Source: a virus
Lineage: Duplodnaviria; Heunggongvirae; Uroviricota; Caudoviricetes
Virus record (IMG/VR): IMGVR_UViG_3300029653_000099
Length of the DNA: 6,604 bases
Strand: one strand, 5' to 3'
The translations under genes were made by a program, and so were the position numbers. Every line of letters starts with the position of its first letter. Positions within the stretch are counted from its first letter, which is position 1. The notes under the pieces are model-generated. The model did not search any database. It saw only the letters and a list, made by a program, of their open reading frames with translations, and had not been told where the DNA came from. Below are positions 1 through 6,604 of the stretch, piece after piece.

Positions 1-90
1 GATGGTCAGGTTGCGGAGGCTATGGCCCTGGTACGAGCGCTGAACAAAATGACGAAAGCAGGTATGCCTGAAAGCGTGCGTATTGCCTGA
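1..90 (+). CDS. 3' end of an ORF cut by the window edge (frame 1, ...DGQVAEAMALVRALNKMTKAGMPESVRIA, stop TGA 88..90); may be a displaced upstream segment of pacA or the end of a separate upstream gene
   Basis: Frame 1 is open from position 1 to the TGA at 88..90. Too short to classify by content. Confidence 0.3.
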   Translation, partial: DGQVAEAMALVRALNKMTKAGMPESVRIA

Positions 91-232
91 AAACACAACC
101 CGCTACGGGGGAGACTTACCCGAAATCTGATTTATTCAACAAAGCCCCCTGGATGATGATGGTGAACGCTTTGAATTCGAAGCTGGCGATTACCTGATAG
201 ATAACGTTGAAGCGCGGAAGGCCGCGCGCGCT

Positions 233-946
233 ATGTTGCGTCGGTCCGGGGCCGATGTTCTGGAAACCACTCTTCTGGAAAAGTCTCTTTCTCATCTCCT
301 TATGCTGGAGAACGCCAGGGATACGTGTATTCGCCTGGTGCAGGAAATGCGCGATCAGCAAAAAGACGATGATGAAGGTACTCCGCCTGAATACCGTATC
401 GCGAGCATGCTAAACAGCTGTTCCGCGCAGATAAGCAGCCTGATCAACACCATTTACAGCATCCGGAATAACTATCGAAAAGAAAGCCGGGAGGCGGAAA
501 AGCACGCTTTGTCTATGGGGCAAGCTGGCATTGTTAAGCTGGCATACGAACGAAAGCGTGAAAATAACTGGTCAGTGCTGGAAGCGGCTGAATTCATCGA
601 GGCGCATGGAGGAAAAGTGCCGCCCCTGATGCTGGAGCAAATCAAAGCCGATCTGCGTGCTCCTAAGACCAATACCGATGATGAGGAAAACCAAACAGCA
701 TCTGGCGCTCCATCACTTGAAGATCTGGATAAAATCGCGCGAGAACGGGCCGCCAGCCGCCGCGCTGATGCGGCATTGTGGATTGAGCATCGTAGAGAAG
801 AAATTGCCGATATCGTCGATACAGGTGGTTATGGTGATGTCGATGCGGAAGGCATATCAAACGAAGCATGGCTTGAACAGGATCTGGACGAAGACGAGGA
901 GGAAGACGAAGAAGTTACCCGCAAACTGTACGGGGATGATGATTAA
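233..946 (+). CDS. pacA: Terminase small subunit PacA-like, C-terminal portion (237 aa from the first ATG; frame open from 131)
   Basis: Sits immediately upstream of pacB with a TAATG stop/start overlap at 944..948, typical of coupled terminase subunits. The acidic C-terminal tail ([11 protein letters not shown]...GDDD) is typical of small terminase subunits. Synteny with P1 pacA-pacB. The frame is closed upstream by TGA at 128..130 and 41..43, so the gene is either interrupted or shorter than the P1 protein as I recall it. Confidence 0.55.
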
Positions 947-2430
947 TGGCCAGAAGTTGCGTAACGGACCCACGTTGGCGCGAGCTTGTGGCGCTATATC
1001 GTTATGACTGGATTGCGGCCGCTGATGTGTTGTTTGGGAAGACACCAACCTGGCAGCAGGATGAGATCATTGAGTCCACGCAGCAGGACGGCAGTTGGAC
1101 AAGTGTGACCTCCGGCCATGGTACTGGTAAATCGGATATGACGAGTATCATTGCAATACTCTTCATCATGTTTTTCCCCGGCGCTCGCGTCATTCTGGTC
1201 GCTAACAAAAGACAGCAAGTCCTTGATGGTATTTTCAAATACATAAAGAGCAATTGGGCTACTGCTGTTAGCAGATTCCCGTGGTTGTCGAAGTATTTCA
1301 TTCTTACAGAAACGTCTTTTTTTGAGGTGACTGGCAAGGGTGTTTGGACAATATTGATAAAGTCCTGTCGCCCCGGAAATGAGGAGGCGTTGGCTGGTGA
1401 ACACGCCGATCATCTCTTGTATATCATCGACGAAGCGTCGGGTGTGAGTGATAAAGCATTCAGTGTGATAACAGGTGCGCTGACCGGTAAGGATAACCGT
1501 ATTCTGCTTCTTTCCCAGCCTACGCGACCTTCAGGCTATTTCTACGATTCACACCACAGACTAGCTATTCGCCCGGGAAATCCTGATGGATTGTTTACTG
1601 CGATAATACTGAATAGTGAAGAATCTCCGCTTGTAGATGCAAAATTTATACGAGCAAAACTTGCGGAGTATGGCGGTCGTGATAACCCCATGTACATGAT
1701 CAAAGTACGTGGTGAATTTCCCAAATCTCAAGATGGCTTTCTTCTTGGTCGTGATGAGGTTGAGCGGGCGACGCGGCGAAAGGTCAAGATTGCCAAAGGA
1801 TGGGGCTGGGTTGCATGTGTTGACGTTGCTGGTGGCACAGGACGAGATAAGTCCGTTATTAATATCATGATGGTGTCCGGCCAGCGAAATAAACGCCGTG
1901 TAATCAACTATCGTATGCTGGAATACACAGACGTTACAGAAACGCAGTTAGCCGCCAAGATTTTCGCAGAATGTAACCCAGAACGGTTCCCGAACATAAC
2001 CATAGCTATTGATGGCGATGGCTTGGGGAAATCGACGGCTGATCTAATGTACGAACGCTATGGCATTACCGTCCAGCGTATCCGCTGGGGTAAAAAGATG
2101 CACAGCCGTGAAGATAAAAGCCTTTATTTCGATATGCGCGCTTTCGCGAATATTCAGGCGGCAGAAGCTGTAAAATCAGGGCGTATGCGGCTTGATAAGG
2201 GGGCTGCGACTATAGAGGAAGCATCAAAGATACCGGTAGGGATAAATTCCGCAGGTCAATGGAAGGTGATGTCAAAGGAAGATATGAAGAAAAAACTCAA
2301 CCTGCACTCACCGGACCATTGGGATACATATTGTTTCGCTATGTTGGCGAACTATGTTCCCCAAGATGAAGTGCTTAGCGTCGAAGACGAAGCGCAGGTT
2401 GATGAAGCTCTGGCATGGCTTAATGAATAA
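946..2430 (+). CDS. pacB: Terminase large subunit PacB (494 aa), ATPase plus nuclease
   Basis: 494-aa ORF matching the length I recall for P1 PacB. Walker A-like P-loop (SGHGTGKS) and Walker B-like (LLYIIDEAS) near the N-terminus, acidic residues in the C-terminal half consistent with an RNaseH-like terminase nuclease. Start overlaps the pacA stop. Confidence 0.88.
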
Positions 2431-2455
2431 CAATTTGACCATGCCGGATGGAAAA

Positions 2456-3307
2456 CTATTGCGCGCTTTCGGGGTTGCTGTTTACTGGCTGCCCCTTCTT
2501 AGTTTTACGGCTGCGCGTAACTGATGCGGCTGATTTGACCTTTTTCTCTTCGCGAGTGATGGCAATTTGTTTTTTTACATTTTCAATATCTGCCAGGCGA
2601 TATATTTTTGCCTGCGGCCAGCGGTCGCAGATGATCGGTTCTATAGAGTCATAAAGGCTAAATTTTGCTTTCTCGAATTTCCCGTTGATGATGATTCCAT
2701 CACGGAGAGTTTCATCGCAGATAAACACACCACACAGCGGCACATGGTAACTAACTGATTTACCATCATTGTAGTTAGGGCTACTGGAAATGTAATGGAC
2801 GCGCAACATTGTTTCGCTAAAGCCGTGTACACGCATACGGAATTTTTCATCCTCCGGGTACTGCTTCATTAGCTCTTTTGTTGCTTCCAGGTTCTCTATG
2901 TATTTCGCACTGTGCTCATTGATCCCCGCGCTTTTCTGGATGCGAATGTCCTTATCAATCAGATGAATAATGCGGCCAGCGGTCATGTTGACGCTGTTCA
3001 CAGCTTCTGTCTGATAAGTTGTAACCTTACGCACACCGCGAAGGATGTTAGGCACTGGATATAAAATAGTCTTTGGGATATTGAGGTCTGGGTACTGTTC
3101 CAGTTCCCGCGCCATTAAAGTCCATTTATCAATTTCAGCCTGAATGCTGTCCGTTTCTTTGAACGGCAGAACGACAACCGGGCGAACAGGACGACCGTCG
3201 CTGGCGGCATCAACGTGTTGGGCGCGTGCAACAGCTTTTTTTAGAAAGAGATCCCTGAAGCTGACGAACTCCTGGTACAGTTGTTCGCCGTAGACATAAT
3301 TTATCAT
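2456..3307 (-). CDS. c1: C1 repressor of lysogeny (283 aa), immC
   Basis: 283-aa ORF convergent with pacB. Length and N-terminus (MINYVYGEQLYQEF...) match my recollection of P1 C1. Strong RBS GGAGGAGGA 6 nt upstream of the ATG on the minus strand. Lies next to coi and loxP-cre as in P1. Confidence 0.88.
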   Translation of the reverse strand: MINYVYGEQLYQEFVSFRDLFLKKAVARAQHVDAASDGRPVRPVVVLPFKETDSIQAEIDKWTLMARELEQYPDLNIPKTILYPVPNILRGVRKVTTYQTEAVNSVNMTAGRIIHLIDKDIRIQKSAGINEHSAKYIENLEATKELMKQYPEDEKFRMRVHGFSETMLRVHYISSSPNYNDGKSVSYHVPLCGVFICDETLRDGIIINGKFEKAKFSLYDSIEPIICDRWPQAKIYRLADIENVKKQIAITREEKKVKSAASVTRSRKTKKGQPVNSNPESAQ

Positions 3308-3329
3308 TGATCCTCCTCCAGAATTGACA

Positions 3330-3372
3330 TGGCCAACAACTCACAGCGGATTACACTGGGAGTTGTTGGCCA
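3330..3372. repeat. Perfect 13-bp inverted repeat (TGGCCAACAACTC / GAGTTGTTGGCCA) with a 17-nt spacer, in the coi-c1 intergenic region
   Basis: Arms at 3330..3342 and 3360..3372 are exact reverse complements. No T-tract follows on either strand, so it is not a canonical intrinsic terminator. Confidence 0.85.
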
Positions 3373-3374
3373 CC

Positions 3375-3418
3375 ATTATAGAAGGATCCAACGAAAATAA
3401 TAGATTTATTAGTGCATT
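3375..3418 (-). promoter_or_regulatory. Putative c1-proximal sigma70 promoter (-10 TATAAT on the minus strand at 3375..3380) with an overlapping C1-operator-like site (AATGCACTAATAAATCT, 14/17, minus strand 3402..3418)
   Basis: Perfect TATAAT hexamer on the minus strand about 70 nt upstream of the c1 start. Operator-like 17-mer overlaps the -35 region and the coi stop codon. The -35 hexamer itself is weak. Confidence 0.35.
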
Positions 3419-3627
3419 TATTGTGAGTCTGGCTGGTTAGTGGCCATGAGATATTCGATTGTGTCAGTGAGATCATCCAGGTCGTCTTGGGTGATGCGGT
3501 ACTCCTGATTGGATATCTTTGAGTAGTGTTCAGCAATGGCGCGGGCAGCGTCGGTTTCGGCGGGGTCTACAGATAAAGCGTTAGAGCAATGTCTAACGTC
3601 GTCGATGGTTGGTGGAATGAAAGCCAT
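3418..3627 (-). CDS. coi: Coi, C1 inactivator (69 aa)
   Basis: 69-aa ORF directly upstream of c1 on the same strand. Length and position match P1 coi as I recall it. RBS GTGAGG 7 nt upstream of the ATG on the minus strand. Confidence 0.8.
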   Translation of the reverse strand: MAFIPPTIDDVRHCSNALSVDPAETDAARAIAEHYSKISNQEYRITQDDLDDLTDTIEYLMATNQPDSQ

Positions 3628-3820
3628 AATTATGCCTCACTGTATTGACAACACAGAGCCTGAAGCTCTGACCTACTGTTTCACCCATGATCCATGCTGG
3701 GGTAATCCTACAACATTGCGCTGTGTGTAAGATGAGCAATGCATAGCTGTAATGCCGTTGTATAAGGTTTCCCTGTTTGCTCATTTCCTTCTGAGCCGCT
3801 CTACAACGCTGAAGACACAT
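3593..3820 (-). CDS. Possible small ORF in the imcA/imcB position upstream of coi (75 aa; alternative internal start at 3784); coding status doubtful
   Basis: Only ORF over 60 aa on the minus strand between coi and the operator-bearing promoter. Overlaps the coi start by 35 nt. No convincing RBS (GAAGGAA abuts the internal ATG with 1-nt spacing). Cys/Trp/His-rich composition atypical of a real protein. Confidence 0.2.
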   Translation of the reverse strand: MCLQRCRAAQKEMSKQGNLIQRHYSYALLILHTAQCCRITPAWIMGETVGQSFRLCVVNTVRHNYGFHSTNHRRR

Positions 3821-3858
3821 TAAATAGTGAATCCAAAGTTGTATTACGAAACGGCGGC

Positions 3859-3888
3859 AAAACTATAATTTATTAGAGCAATTGTCAA
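3859..3888 (-). promoter_or_regulatory. Putative immC promoter driving coi-c1: -35 TTGACA (minus strand 3883..3888), near-consensus C1 operator ATTGCTCTAATAAATTA (minus strand 3866..3882, 16/17) in the spacer, -10 TATAGT or TAGTTT
   Basis: Perfect -35 hexamer directly abutting a 16/17 operator match, followed by a -10-like hexamer at 15 to 17 bp spacing. Oriented toward coi and c1. Operator consensus is from recalled P1 literature. Confidence 0.5.
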
Positions 3889-3948
3889 ACAACTATGAAA
3901 AACAATCCAGTTTTTGGCTGGTGGAGTGGGATTTTTCTCTCAAAATTT

Positions 3949-3965
3949 ATTGCTCTAATAATTCT
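3949..3965 (+). promoter_or_regulatory. C1 operator copy ATTGCTCTAATAATTCT (15/17), inverted relative to the 3866..3882 copy
   Basis: Direct sequence match to the asymmetric operator consensus. Forms a back-to-back pair with the minus-strand copy 66 bp away. Confidence 0.6.
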
Positions 3966-4008
3966 TGATTTTTATGCGCAGCTGGACGTAAACTCCTCTT
4001 CAGACCTA

Positions 4009-4042
4009 ATAACTTCGTATAGCATACATTATACGAAGTTAT
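4009..4042. other. loxP: loxP site-specific recombination site (13-bp inverted repeats ATAACTTCGTATA flanking the 8-bp spacer GCATACAT)
   Basis: Exact 34-bp match to canonical loxP. Lies about 420 bp upstream of the cre start, as in P1. Confidence 0.97.
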
Positions 4043-4060
4043 CTTAAGGGTTATTGAACA

Positions 4061-4154
4061 TGATCAATTTACCTGTAAATCCATACAGTTCAATACCTTA
4101 TCAGGTCAAATAGTGATCACTTGATCATTTGATCAAGGTTGCGCTACGTAAAAT
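4061..4154 (+). promoter_or_regulatory. Dam-site cluster and putative cre-region promoter: four TGATCA hexamers (4061, 4114, 4122, 4130), the last three at exact 8-bp spacing, overlapping the -35 region of a -10-like TAAAAT (4149..4154)
   Basis: GATC at 4062, 4115, 4123 and 4131. Recalled literature describes cre promoters regulated by Dam methylation. The -10 and -35 assignment is my own reading. Confidence 0.45.
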
Positions 4155-4199
4155 CTGCGAAATGTTGGCAGTGTTTGTGCTCCAGATTTCGCGTAGCGC
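4141..4199. repeat. Imperfect 17-bp inverted repeat (GCGCTACGTAAAATCTG / CAGATTTCGCGTAGCGC, 15/17) with a 25-bp spacer, ending 33 nt upstream of the 73-aa ORF
   Basis: Arms at 4141..4157 and 4183..4199. Candidate dimeric-protein binding site or RNA stem-loop. Confidence 0.7.
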
Positions 4200-4231
4200 A
4201 CTTAGCACCACCAATCAATCAGAGGTGAAAA

Positions 4232-4453
4232 ATGGGATATTCAGCTGCTAAAGTGTCCACTCATCTTGAGCTTGAGAAAAATCGTGGTTACTGGCGGGCA
4301 AAAGGGTTTGATCGTGATAGTTGTCAACTGTCATTATCGCGCGGTGAAGAAAAGATAGAACGCAGTCGCGGTCGTTGGCGTTTCTATGACGAGAACCATA
4401 AACAGGTAAAGGCAGAGCCGATCCTGTACACTTTACTTAAAACCATTATCTGA
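4232..4453 (+). CDS. Hypothetical small basic protein (73 aa) immediately upstream of cre
   Basis: ATG preceded by a strong RBS (AGAGGTGA, 6-nt spacing). Stop lies 7 nt before the cre ATG, so the two are likely co-transcribed. Lys/Arg-rich sequence. No family recognised. Confidence 0.5.
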   Translation: MGYSAAKVSTHLELEKNRGYWRAKGFDRDSCQLSLSRGEEKIERSRGRWRFYDENHKQVKAEPILYTLLKTII

Positions 4454-4460
4454 GTGTCAA

Positions 4461-5492
4461 ATGTCCAATTTACTGACCGTACACCAAAATTTGCCTGCAT
4501 TGCCGGTCGATGCAACGAGTGATGAGGTTCGCAAGAACCTGATGGATATGTTCAGGGATCGCCAGGCGTTTTCTGAGCATACCTGGAAAATGCTTCTGTC
4601 CGTTTGCCGGTCATGGGCGGCATGGTGCAAGTTGAATAACCGGAAATGGTTTCCCGCAGAACCTGAAGATGTTCGCGATTATCTTCTATATCTTCAGGCG
4701 CGCGGTCTGGCAGTGAAAACTATCCAGCAACATTTGGGCCAGCTAAATATGCTTCATCGTCGGTCCGGGCTGCAACGACCAAGTGACAGCAATGCTGTTT
4801 CACTCGTCATGCGACGGATCCGAAAAGAAAACGTTGATGCCGGTGAGCGTGCAAAACAGGCGCTGGCGTTCGAACGCACTGATTTCGACCAGGTTCGTTC
4901 ACTCATGGAAAATAGCGATCGCTGCCAGGATATACGTAATCTGGCATTTCTGGGGATTGCTTATAACACCCTGTTACGTATAGCCGAAATTTCTAGGATC
5001 AGAGTTAAAGATATCTCACGTACTGACGGTGGGAGAATGTTAATCCATATTGGCAGAACGAAAACGCTGGTTAGCACCGCTGGTGTAGAGAAGGCACTTA
5101 GTCTGGGGGTAACTAAACTGGTTGAGCGATGGATTTCTGTCTCTGGTGTGGCTGATGATCCGAATAACTACTTGTTTTGCCGTGTCAGAAAAAATGGTGT
5201 TGCCGCGCCATCTGCCACCAGCCAGCTATCAACTCGCGCCCTGGAAGGGATTTTTGAAGCAACTCACCGATTGATTTTCGGGGCTAAGGATGACTCTGGC
5301 CAGAGGTACCTGGCCTGGTCTGGACACAGTGCCCGTGTCGGAGCCGCGCGAGATATGGCCCGCGCCGGAGTTTCAATACCGGAGATCATGCAAGCTGGTG
5401 GCTGGACCAACGTAAATATTGTCATGAACTATATCCGTAACCTGGATAGTGAAACAGGGGCAATGGTGCGCCTGCTGGAAGATGGCTATTAG
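4461..5492 (+). CDS. cre: Cre tyrosine site-specific recombinase (343 aa)
   Basis: 343-aa ORF, near-identical to P1 Cre as I recall it (MSNLLTVHQNLPALPVDATSDEVRKNLMDMFRDRQAFSEHTWK...), with the cognate loxP site upstream. A few apparent substitutions relative to the canonical sequence (for example LQRP vs LPRP, IAEISRI vs IAEIARI, LIFGA vs LIYGA, C-terminal GY vs GD); these rest on memory. Confidence 0.97.
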   Translation: MSNLLTVHQNLPALPVDATSDEVRKNLMDMFRDRQAFSEHTWKMLLSVCRSWAAWCKLNNRKWFPAEPEDVRDYLLYLQARGLAVKTIQQHLGQLNMLHRRSGLQRPSDSNAVSLVMRRIRKENVDAGERAKQALAFERTDFDQVRSLMENSDRCQDIRNLAFLGIAYNTLLRIAEISRIRVKDISRTDGGRMLIHIGRTKTLVSTAGVEKALSLGVTKLVERWISVSGVADDPNNYLFCRVRKNGVAAPSATSQLSTRALEGIFEATHRLIFGAKDDSGQRYLAWSGHSARVGAARDMARAGVSIPEIMQAGGWTNVNIVMNYIRNLDSETGAMVRLLEDGY

Positions 5493-5509
5493 CCATTAGC
5501 GCGCAAATG

Positions 5510-5526
5510 ATTGCTCTAATTCTTTG
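5510..5526 (+). promoter_or_regulatory. C1-operator-like site ATTGCTCTAATTCTTTG (13/17; first 11 positions exact) between cre and the downstream ORF
   Basis: Direct match to the conserved 5' half of the operator consensus, 17 bp upstream of the next ORF start. Confidence 0.4.
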
Positions 5527-5542
5527 GTATTTATGGTGACAT

Positions 5543-5854
5543 GTGAGAAAGGATTTCAACATCGACGGAAAATATGTAGTGCTGTCTGTAAGCACTAATA
5601 TTCAGTCGCCAGCCGTCATTGTCACTGTAAAGCTGAGCGATAGAATGCCTGATATTGACTCAATATCCGTTGCGTTCCCTGTCAAAAGTATGCGTAGTGC
5701 TGAACATTTCGTGATGAATGCCACCGAGAAAGAAGCACGGCGCGGTTTTGCCAAAGTGATGGCCGAGTTTGGCGAATTTTTGGGGCACGTTGACAAAGCC
5801 CTTTCAATCAGTTCAGCAAGGTCCAAAGCGTTAACAGCTTCCATGCTGAAATAA
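5543..5854 (+). CDS. Hypothetical protein (103 aa) downstream of cre, in the position of P1 cra (cre-associated)
   Basis: GTG start with GGTGA 3 nt upstream, so the exact start is uncertain. Same strand as cre; stop TAA at 5852..5854 followed by a hairpin. No motif recognised. Confidence 0.5.
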   Translation: MRKDFNIDGKYVVLSVSTNIQSPAVIVTVKLSDRMPDIDSISVAFPVKSMRSAEHFVMNATEKEARRGFAKVMAEFGEFLGHVDKALSISSARSKALTASMLK

Positions 5855-5879
5855 AAAAAGCCTGGCAAGGAGCCAGGCT
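5853..5879 (-). terminator. Intrinsic terminator oriented for the minus strand: 8-bp stem (AGCCTGGC / GCCAGGCT), 5-nt loop, then a 6 to 7-U tract on the minus strand
   Basis: On the plus strand it is an A7 tract followed by the hairpin with no downstream T-tract, so it is canonical only for leftward transcription. It sits right at the 3' end of the plus-strand ORF. Confidence 0.5.
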
Positions 5880-5984
5880 GCACAAAAGAGCGGGTTTGTA
5901 TTCCGCATTCAATCAATCAAGAAGGAGTATAGTACACAGGTACTGAAGTGAAAAAATGTGATTCGCGATAAACAAATAACTTTA

Positions 5985-6014
5985 ATTGCTCTAATTGATT
6001 GCTATAATTGAGCC
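5985..6014 (+). promoter_or_regulatory. C1-controlled ref promoter region: operator-like ATTGCTCTAATTGATTG (5985..6001, 14/17), overlapping second partial copy ATTGCTATAATTGAGCC (5998..6014), and extended -10 TGcTATAAT (6000..6008)
   Basis: Perfect TATAAT with an upstream TG, inside two overlapping operator-like repeats about 95 nt upstream of ref. Consistent with recalled C1 repression of ref through operator Op2. Confidence 0.55.
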
Positions 6015-6068
6015 GCAGTTTTTGTCAACTACGAAGACGCTGCCATTACTTCACTCCTTGACATCATT

Positions 6069-6094
6069 GGCGGCCATTAGGCCGCCTTTTTTTT
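6069..6094 (+). terminator. Intrinsic terminator-like hairpin (7-bp GC stem GGCGGCC / GGCCGCC, loop ATTA) followed by T8, ending 5 nt before the ref ATG
   Basis: Stem arms are exact reverse complements, followed by eight consecutive T on the plus strand. Confidence 0.65.
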
Positions 6095-6099
6095 GCCAT

Positions 6100-6537
6100 A
6101 TGAAAACAATCGAACAAAAACTTGAACAGCGCCGCGAGTGGCAGAAGGCAGCCAGAGAACGAGCGATCGATCGGCAACGGGAAAAGTTGGCTGACCCCGC
6201 CTGGCGAGAATCGCAATATCAGAAAATGCGGGATTCTATCGACCGCCGTATCGCTAAACAGAAAGAGCGCCCACCAGCCAGCAAAACGCGGAAAAGTGCG
6301 GTAAAAATAAAATCTCGTGGCTTGAAGGGGCGAACACCGACGGCGGAGGAACGGACCATCGCCAATGCTCTTGGCACTCTCCCCTGCATTGCCTGCTACA
6401 TGCATGGAGTAATATCTGAAGAGGTGTCTCTGCACCATATCTCCGGTCGTACCGCGCCGGGTTGTCACAAAAAGCAATTGCCCCTTTGTAGATGGCACCA
6501 CCAGCATGCAGCACCGGCTGAAGTAAGAGGGGTTTGA
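6100..6537 (+). CDS. ref: Ref-like HNH endonuclease (recombination enhancement function); 145 aa from the MKTIEQ start, apparently shorter than P1 Ref
   Basis: N-terminus MKTIEQKLEQRREWQKAARERAIDRQREKLADP... and the HNH-like core (LHHISGRTAPGCHKKQLPLCRWHHQHAAP) match my recollection of P1 Ref. A highly basic N-terminal region precedes the core. The TTG at 5995 in the ORF track is an in-frame extension through the operator and terminator and is unlikely to be the real start. Confidence 0.75.
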   Translation: MKTIEQKLEQRREWQKAARERAIDRQREKLADPAWRESQYQKMRDSIDRRIAKQKERPPASKTRKSAVKIKSRGLKGRTPTAEERTIANALGTLPCIACYMHGVISEEVSLHHISGRTAPGCHKKQLPLCRWHHQHAAPAEVRGV

Positions 6538-6577
6538 GGGCCAATGATGTAAAAAACCACGCTAAGGAGGTAATTCA

Positions 6578-6604
6578 TTGTTTAAATTGAGATTTAACGG
6601 CCTC
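6578..6604 (+). CDS. Possible 5' end of a gene starting with TTG after a strong RBS (AAGGAGG 6564..6570, 7-nt spacing); runs off the window
   Basis: Consensus Shine-Dalgarno followed by TTG TTT AAA TTG AGA... Only 9 codons are visible. Confidence 0.3.

Follow-up and report, generated by a model that had tools for sequence, protein, structure and literature searches.

Loss or inactivation of genes is known to turn P1-like phage-plasmids into plasmids (Pfeifer and Rocha, Nat Commun 2024, PMC10879196). In P1, pacA was essential in a genome-wide CRISPRi screen, and amber mutants of the gene are recorded (PMC10695390); it is also one of the most highly conserved genes in P1-like phage-plasmids (PMC9603915). 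Inactivation of a gene by insertion of IS903B has been described for cirA in Klebsiella pneumoniae, with a 9-bp duplication as the reported hallmark of the insertion (PMC13618097).

In the 6,604-nucleotide stretch of DNA analysed here (the window), an IS903B-type insertion sequence (IS) has very probably transposed into pacA of a P1-like phage-plasmid, duplicating the 9-bp target CCCTGGATG. This locus resembles cirA::IS903B (PMC13618097) in the IS involved (99% over the ends seen), its 18-bp repeats, the 9-bp duplication, and the interruption of a coding sequence. It differs in the target, which is the pacase gene of a P1-like element, and in the expected phenotype, which is loss of packaging instead of drug resistance. 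The window shares with P1 (AF234172) and P7 (AF503408) the gene order pacB-c1-coi-loxP-cre-ref, and positions 147..2430 are 99-100% identical to the 3' part of their pacA together with pacB. In contrast to both phages, its pacA is split after nucleotide 403 by the IS, and the late promoter LPpac, the start codon, codons 1-131, and the pac site are absent from the window.

The cases of Pfeifer and Rocha (PMC10879196) offer a further parallel: this element likewise belongs to the P1 group, an essential function of virion production is disrupted while plasmid and lysogeny functions are kept, and mobile elements have accumulated, here IS903B in pacA and a Tn3-family end in ref. Unlike those cases, it would stand very near the start of the process, with one IS insertion, which precise excision could potentially undo; neither large deletions nor acquired mob/oriT were seen within the 6.6 kb of the window. 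Both the insertion sequence and the gene are known, and such events are routine; the result is an insertion pseudogene of the textbook kind, lying at the edge of a contig. Its importance is small: another IS inactivating an essential phage gene, and an instance of the decay of P1-like phage-plasmids to plasmids.

The IS903B end at the left edge

IS903 is about 1057 bp long and encodes one DDE transposase of 307 amino acids. The window begins within IS903/IS903B, and its first 146 bases match both the IS903 copy of HK022, annotated there as a repeat_region "insertion sequence IS903" of 1057 bp, and the IS903B copy of the plasmid NZ_CP034659.1 (145/146 in each case). The sole difference, G instead of A at position 15, is synonymous (GCG/GCA, Ala). 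A megablast search of phage genomes also placed this segment in phage O276 (99.3%), where the features are a transposase or insertion sequence IS903. The segment also matched more than 5000 plasmid records, as is expected of so common an IS. One further hit, phage SJ46, appeared to cover 1..6529; this proved to be an artefact of joining separate pieces, as the IS903 of SJ46 lies beyond the end of ref beside blaCTX-M-27, outside pacA.

The terminal inverted repeat GGCTTTGTTGAATAAATC is present at both ends of the IS, one of them in the window and the other in five contigs that carry the opposite junction (L015-L019), and both copies are identical to the ends of the IS903 of HK022 and the IS903B of NZ_CP034659.1. 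Of the IS, 146 bases at its right end and some 126 at its left are assembled; no contig found covers the interior, which every such assembly had collapsed as a repeat.

Table 1. Features of the window, with the basis on which each was placed.
Feature	Coordinates	Strand	Basis or remark
IS903/IS903B (IS5 family), right-hand end	1..146	+	145/146 identical (99.3%) to known copies
IS903 transposase 3' end, last 29 codons, ...DGQVAEAMALVRALNKMTKAGMPESVRIA then stop	1..90 (TGA 88..90)	+	frame-1 translation, collinear with the HK022 CDS
IS903 18-bp terminal inverted repeat, GGCTTTGTTGAATAAATC (read inward from the IS end)	129..146	-	sequence identity
9-bp target-site duplication, right copy, CCCTGGATG	147..155	+	P1 AF234172 90923..90931, pacA nt 395..403
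pacA 3' remnant	147..946	+	gene nt 395..1194, codon 132 second base to stop; P1 annotation and alignment
Longest ATG-initiated ORF within the remnant, 237 aa	233..946	+	ORF list
pacB, intact, 494 aa	946..2430	+	start codon overlaps the pacA stop (TAATG)
c1	2456..3307	-	ORF of 283 aa
loxP	4009..4042		exact

The breakpoint in pacA and the succession of reading frames

When positions 1..1000 were compared with phage genomes by megablast, the query split exactly at 146/147, and the part from 147 to 1000 was 99.6-99.8% identical to the pacA-pacB region of P1 and P7 and 100% identical to that of many P1-like plasmids. In a multiple alignment, the window tracks IS903 through ...CAACAAAGCC at position 146, and the P1-type sequences join from 147 at CCCTGGATG; to the left of 147 the window bears no resemblance to P1 or the closest plasmid, and to the right of 146 the IS903 of HK022 diverges. 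Position 147 corresponds to AF234172 90923, the second base of codon 132, so the remnant is expected in frame 2, as observed.

Only codons 132-397 of pacA are contiguous with pacB. The pac cleavage positions lie at AF234172 90804-90813. PacA has a single recognisable feature, a helix-turn-helix (HTH_23) match below threshold at residues 10-44 of the P1 protein, and this falls outside the remnant. Judged from these alignments, pacA here is a split pseudogene, with a remnant 99.6-100% identical to true pacA.

The first-pass annotation of this DNA had described three frames open in succession at the left edge, and this description holds: frame 1 is open over 1..87, frame 3 over 72..194, and frame 2, that of pacA, from 131 to the pacA stop at 944..946, with in-frame TGA codons at 41..43 and 128..130. 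Its 494-residue PacB was correct, and its figure of about 397 residues for P1 PacA agrees with the annotation of AF234172 (90529..91722). Direct reading and six-frame translation added one stop in frame 2 that it had missed (TAA, 50..52), and frame 3 is bounded by stops at 69..71 and 195..197. The TGA at 128..130, where the pacA frame closes, reaches into the inverted repeat at its inner edge. Frame 1 belongs to the transposase and frame 2 to pacA, and frame 3 is a chance frame over the junction. On the sequence comparisons, this succession is what two unrelated sequences abutting at 146/147 produce, and not a pattern of indels within one gene.

The reciprocal junction and the target-site duplication

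A simple transposition of IS903 into pacA predicts that, on the other side, nucleotides 1..403 of the gene run into the left end of the IS, giving PacA residues 1-134 followed by Gly-Leu-Cys-stop. This predicted 137-residue fusion (residues 1-134 plus GLC) was found by exact match in a public protein collection. The matching variant was the one built from the N-terminus of the ATCC 98082 type, that of the closest relative; seven variants of the fusion built from other lineages were absent from the collection by the same exact matching.

Four of the left-junction contigs (L015-L018) carry phd-doc-pdcA-pdcB-lpa and the 5' part of pacA. The left-junction contigs end in ...GACACCCTGGATG/GGCTTTGTTGAATAAATCGAAC..., also written ...CCCTGGATG/GGCTTTGTTGAATAAATCG, with the left end of IS903 following the slash, and the right junction in the window reads ...CAACAAAGCC/CCCTGGATGATG. 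The 9-bp sequence CCCTGGATG, which occurs once in intact pacA, thus stands directly to the right of the IS in the window and directly to its left in L015-L019. The two copies are on separate contigs of the same samples, with no read or contig linking the junctions. Their presence on both flanks of the IS is the signature of simple IS903 transposition, and the insertion point would lie between pacA nucleotides 394 and 404. The left junction contains the transposase-proximal end of the IS and the right junction its transposase-distal end, with the same orientation at both, the arrangement expected of a single copy.

The window itself would be a short-read contig that starts inside the repeated IS, which accounts for its first 146 bases being the 3' end of the transposase and a terminal inverted repeat, with pacA resuming at 147. 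The megahit contigs of the left junction stop about k-1 bases into the IS (126 bases in L015, at k=127), as expected where a repeat occurs in several copies.

Relatives and recurrence

The closest complete relative is NZ_CP034659.1 (Escherichia coli ATCC 98082), with 3 differences in 6458 positions over 147..6604 of the window. In this plasmid, pacA is an intact 1194-nt CDS (397 amino acids) preceded by lpa. It carries an IS903B copy of its own (L002 14350..15406, about 424.3-425.4 kb), which interrupts hsdM, the methylase gene of a type I restriction-modification system, some 3.7 kb upstream of the intact pacA, and has the duplication GCGCTGAAC on either side. This second site points to repeated IS903B activity in this plasmid backbone.

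The right junction recurs in two contigs, one (L012) identical to the window over 6585 bases and the other (L013) with 2 differences in 6439. The former comes from the same sample as left-junction contigs L015 and L017 (ERR912081/ERZ918259, a human gut metagenome), and the latter from the same sample as L016 (SRR34061433). Contig L018 derives from a third run (ERR10113986), and the fifth left-junction contig from the JGI metagenome 3300029653, via IMG/VR. The five left-junction contigs show no differences over up to 10.4 kb and come from at least four data sets. This identity suggests one fairly widespread clonal pacA::IS903B plasmid lineage, or a shared strain. No record spans 146/147 among the PLSDB plasmids or the RefSeq complete E. 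coli genomes (5,426 genomes), the exact right junction had no match in GTDB representative genomes, IMG/VR, or JGI metagenome contigs, and no contig spanning the whole IS was found.

Alternative explanations

The first-pass annotation had proposed that pacA runs to the left edge of the window and is broken by two single-base indels at homopolymers, either real or due to sequencing error, in keeping with the three successive open frames and the homopolymers nearby. Alignment of the left edge with P1 pacA refutes this explanation. Positions 1..146 have no similarity to pacA nucleotides 249..394, where the gene would have continued, and they are 99.3% identical to IS903; homology to pacA ends abruptly at 147 and does not carry on across the frame changes, even with two gaps permitted. 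The homopolymers have another origin, since CCCCC (145..149) is the junction itself, made of CC from the IS and CCC from pacA, and AAAA (90..93) and GGGGG are normal IS903 sequence, the same in the reference copies. The coordinates given for AAAA and CCCCC were right, and those of GGGGG are 107..111 instead of 106..110. We consider the indels virtually excluded. An assembly error had also been raised, in which an IS903 end from elsewhere was misjoined to a fragment of pacA. The window is indeed a short contig with both ends in repeated mobile elements, and its junction is missing from all complete records searched. Yet the same right junction is present in two other data sets, and the reciprocal left junction, with the matching 9-bp duplication, was recovered in five contigs from four data sets; the pipelines behind them differ (ENA megahit, Logan, JGI), and a random misjoin would make no target-site duplication. 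A chimera is extremely unlikely on these grounds.

Tn903 carries its IS903 copies in inverted orientation. A split of pacA by more than one 1057-bp IS would be conceivable as a composite transposon of directly repeated IS903 copies, or as the outcome of a later IS-mediated rearrangement, given that the interior of the IS is unassembled and that IS903B often flanks resistance modules, as with blaCTX-M-27 beside the IS903 of SJ46. However, the proximal and distal ends in the same orientation, together with the 9-bp duplication, form the pattern of a single copy, and the shared orientation excludes an architecture of the Tn903 type. Had the DNA been rearranged after the insertion, the two copies of the duplication would usually no longer be paired. 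We regard this explanation, too, as very unlikely, and insertion of a single IS903B-type element remains our preferred reading.

The 237-residue open reading frame

Another suggestion had been a genuinely shorter PacA with a different gene upstream. A different gene does lie upstream, namely the IS903 transposase, and a natural PacA of 237 residues found no backing, as the nearest complete relatives have a pacA encoding 397 residues. The short form had seemed plausible because a 237-residue product is called on many contigs, and inspection gave other causes for it: runs of N over the pac region (L008-L011, L014), deletions (L005, L006), or a contig end (L007). The calls on L012 and L013 stem from the same IS junction as in the window. 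The product has no Pfam match. The 237-residue ORF is a product of gene calling, and a natural short PacA is not supported.

The gapped contigs are ENA assemblies labelled "METAG-scaffold". In L008-L011, 100 N cover about pacA nucleotides 120-440 in P1-like elements. In L014, the gap within pacA is 10 N long, and the sequence after it (CCCTGGGTG...) starts at the very base where pacA resumes in the window. Assembly of the pac region seems to be difficult, and the N gaps create a spurious 237-residue "PacA" call.

Other disruptions affect the same part of the gene, in the regions L005 9526..10714 and L006 9601..10714. In GCA_028485975.1, a 5-nt deletion near pacA nucleotide 370 has removed part of the last pac hexamer and leaves ORFs of 132 and 237 residues. 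In SRR14138312, an 80-nt deletion (pacA nucleotides 396-475) starts one base from the IS903 insertion point; this proximity may be coincidence, a fragile spot, or an IS footprint. When a contig begins within an IS, as here, annotation yields a plausible 237-residue "terminase" and an apparent frameshift, which should be read neither as a short PacA variant nor as a sequencing error.

Predicted consequences for the element

The insertion would cut PacA into a 137-residue N-terminal piece and a promoterless C-terminal remnant with its first in-frame ATG at 233. The 5' fragment beyond the IS comprises LPpac, codons 1-134, and the complete pac site, ending in Gly-Leu-Cys-stop inside the IS. In the left-junction contigs, LPpac is kept and none of the eight TGATCA/G hexamers around the pac cleavage site is damaged; as the insertion lies 14 bases past the last hexamer, pac itself is intact. 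We infer that the element makes no functional PacA. As P1 requires pacA for pac cleavage and lytic growth, the element is probably defective in packaging and would be maintained only as a plasmid. The genes for C1 and Cre (283 and 343 amino acids) and loxP are intact in the window. Of the earlier proposal of a pseudogenised small terminase in a defective, plasmid-like derivative of P1, the disruption of pacA stands and the defectiveness probably does as well, while its indel mechanism falls.

A simple scan of positions 1..1000 returned no sigma-70-like promoter and so gives no evidence of an outward promoter in the IS driving the remnant; transcription out of the IS into pacA'-pacB may occur. 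An intact pacA allele could coexist with the interrupted one in the metagenomic samples. It is conceivable, if rather unlikely, that pacA::IS903B is a stably circulating lineage locked into the plasmid lifestyle and possibly selected because its host is not killed by productive lysis. More speculatively, the element could still be packaged, through precise excision of the IS in a subpopulation or with PacA supplied by a co-resident P1-type helper; the latter is conceivable because the pac site is intact. PCR detection of P1-like elements uses pacA as a marker (PMC9603915). With this allele, the amplified fragment could exceed the expected length by about 1.07 kb or be missing, depending on the primer site.

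The right edge of the window and the c1 difference

At the right edge, ref (ATG at 6100; 186 amino acids in intact relatives) is truncated. Homology to P1-like ref ends at 6529, and the remaining bases (6530..6604) open with a terminal repeat of the Tn3-family type, GGGGTTTGAGGGCCAATG.... With ref truncated here and the IS end in pacA at the other edge, the window has a mobile element at each of its ends, as would fit a short-read contig that broke at repeats. The same ref/Tn3 junction is found in NZ_CP034659.1 and NZ_CP061756.1, followed by a fragment of a Tn3-family transposase and IS26; in NZ_CP061756.1, a heat-resistance locus (psiE-GI, kefB-GI, trx-GI, and others) follows too.

Within c1, the window has TC at 2680..2681, where NZ_CP034659.1 and NZ_CP061756.1 both have CA. 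This dinucleotide change replaces Glu by Lys at residue 210 of the C1 repressor and leaves the length of the ORF unaltered.
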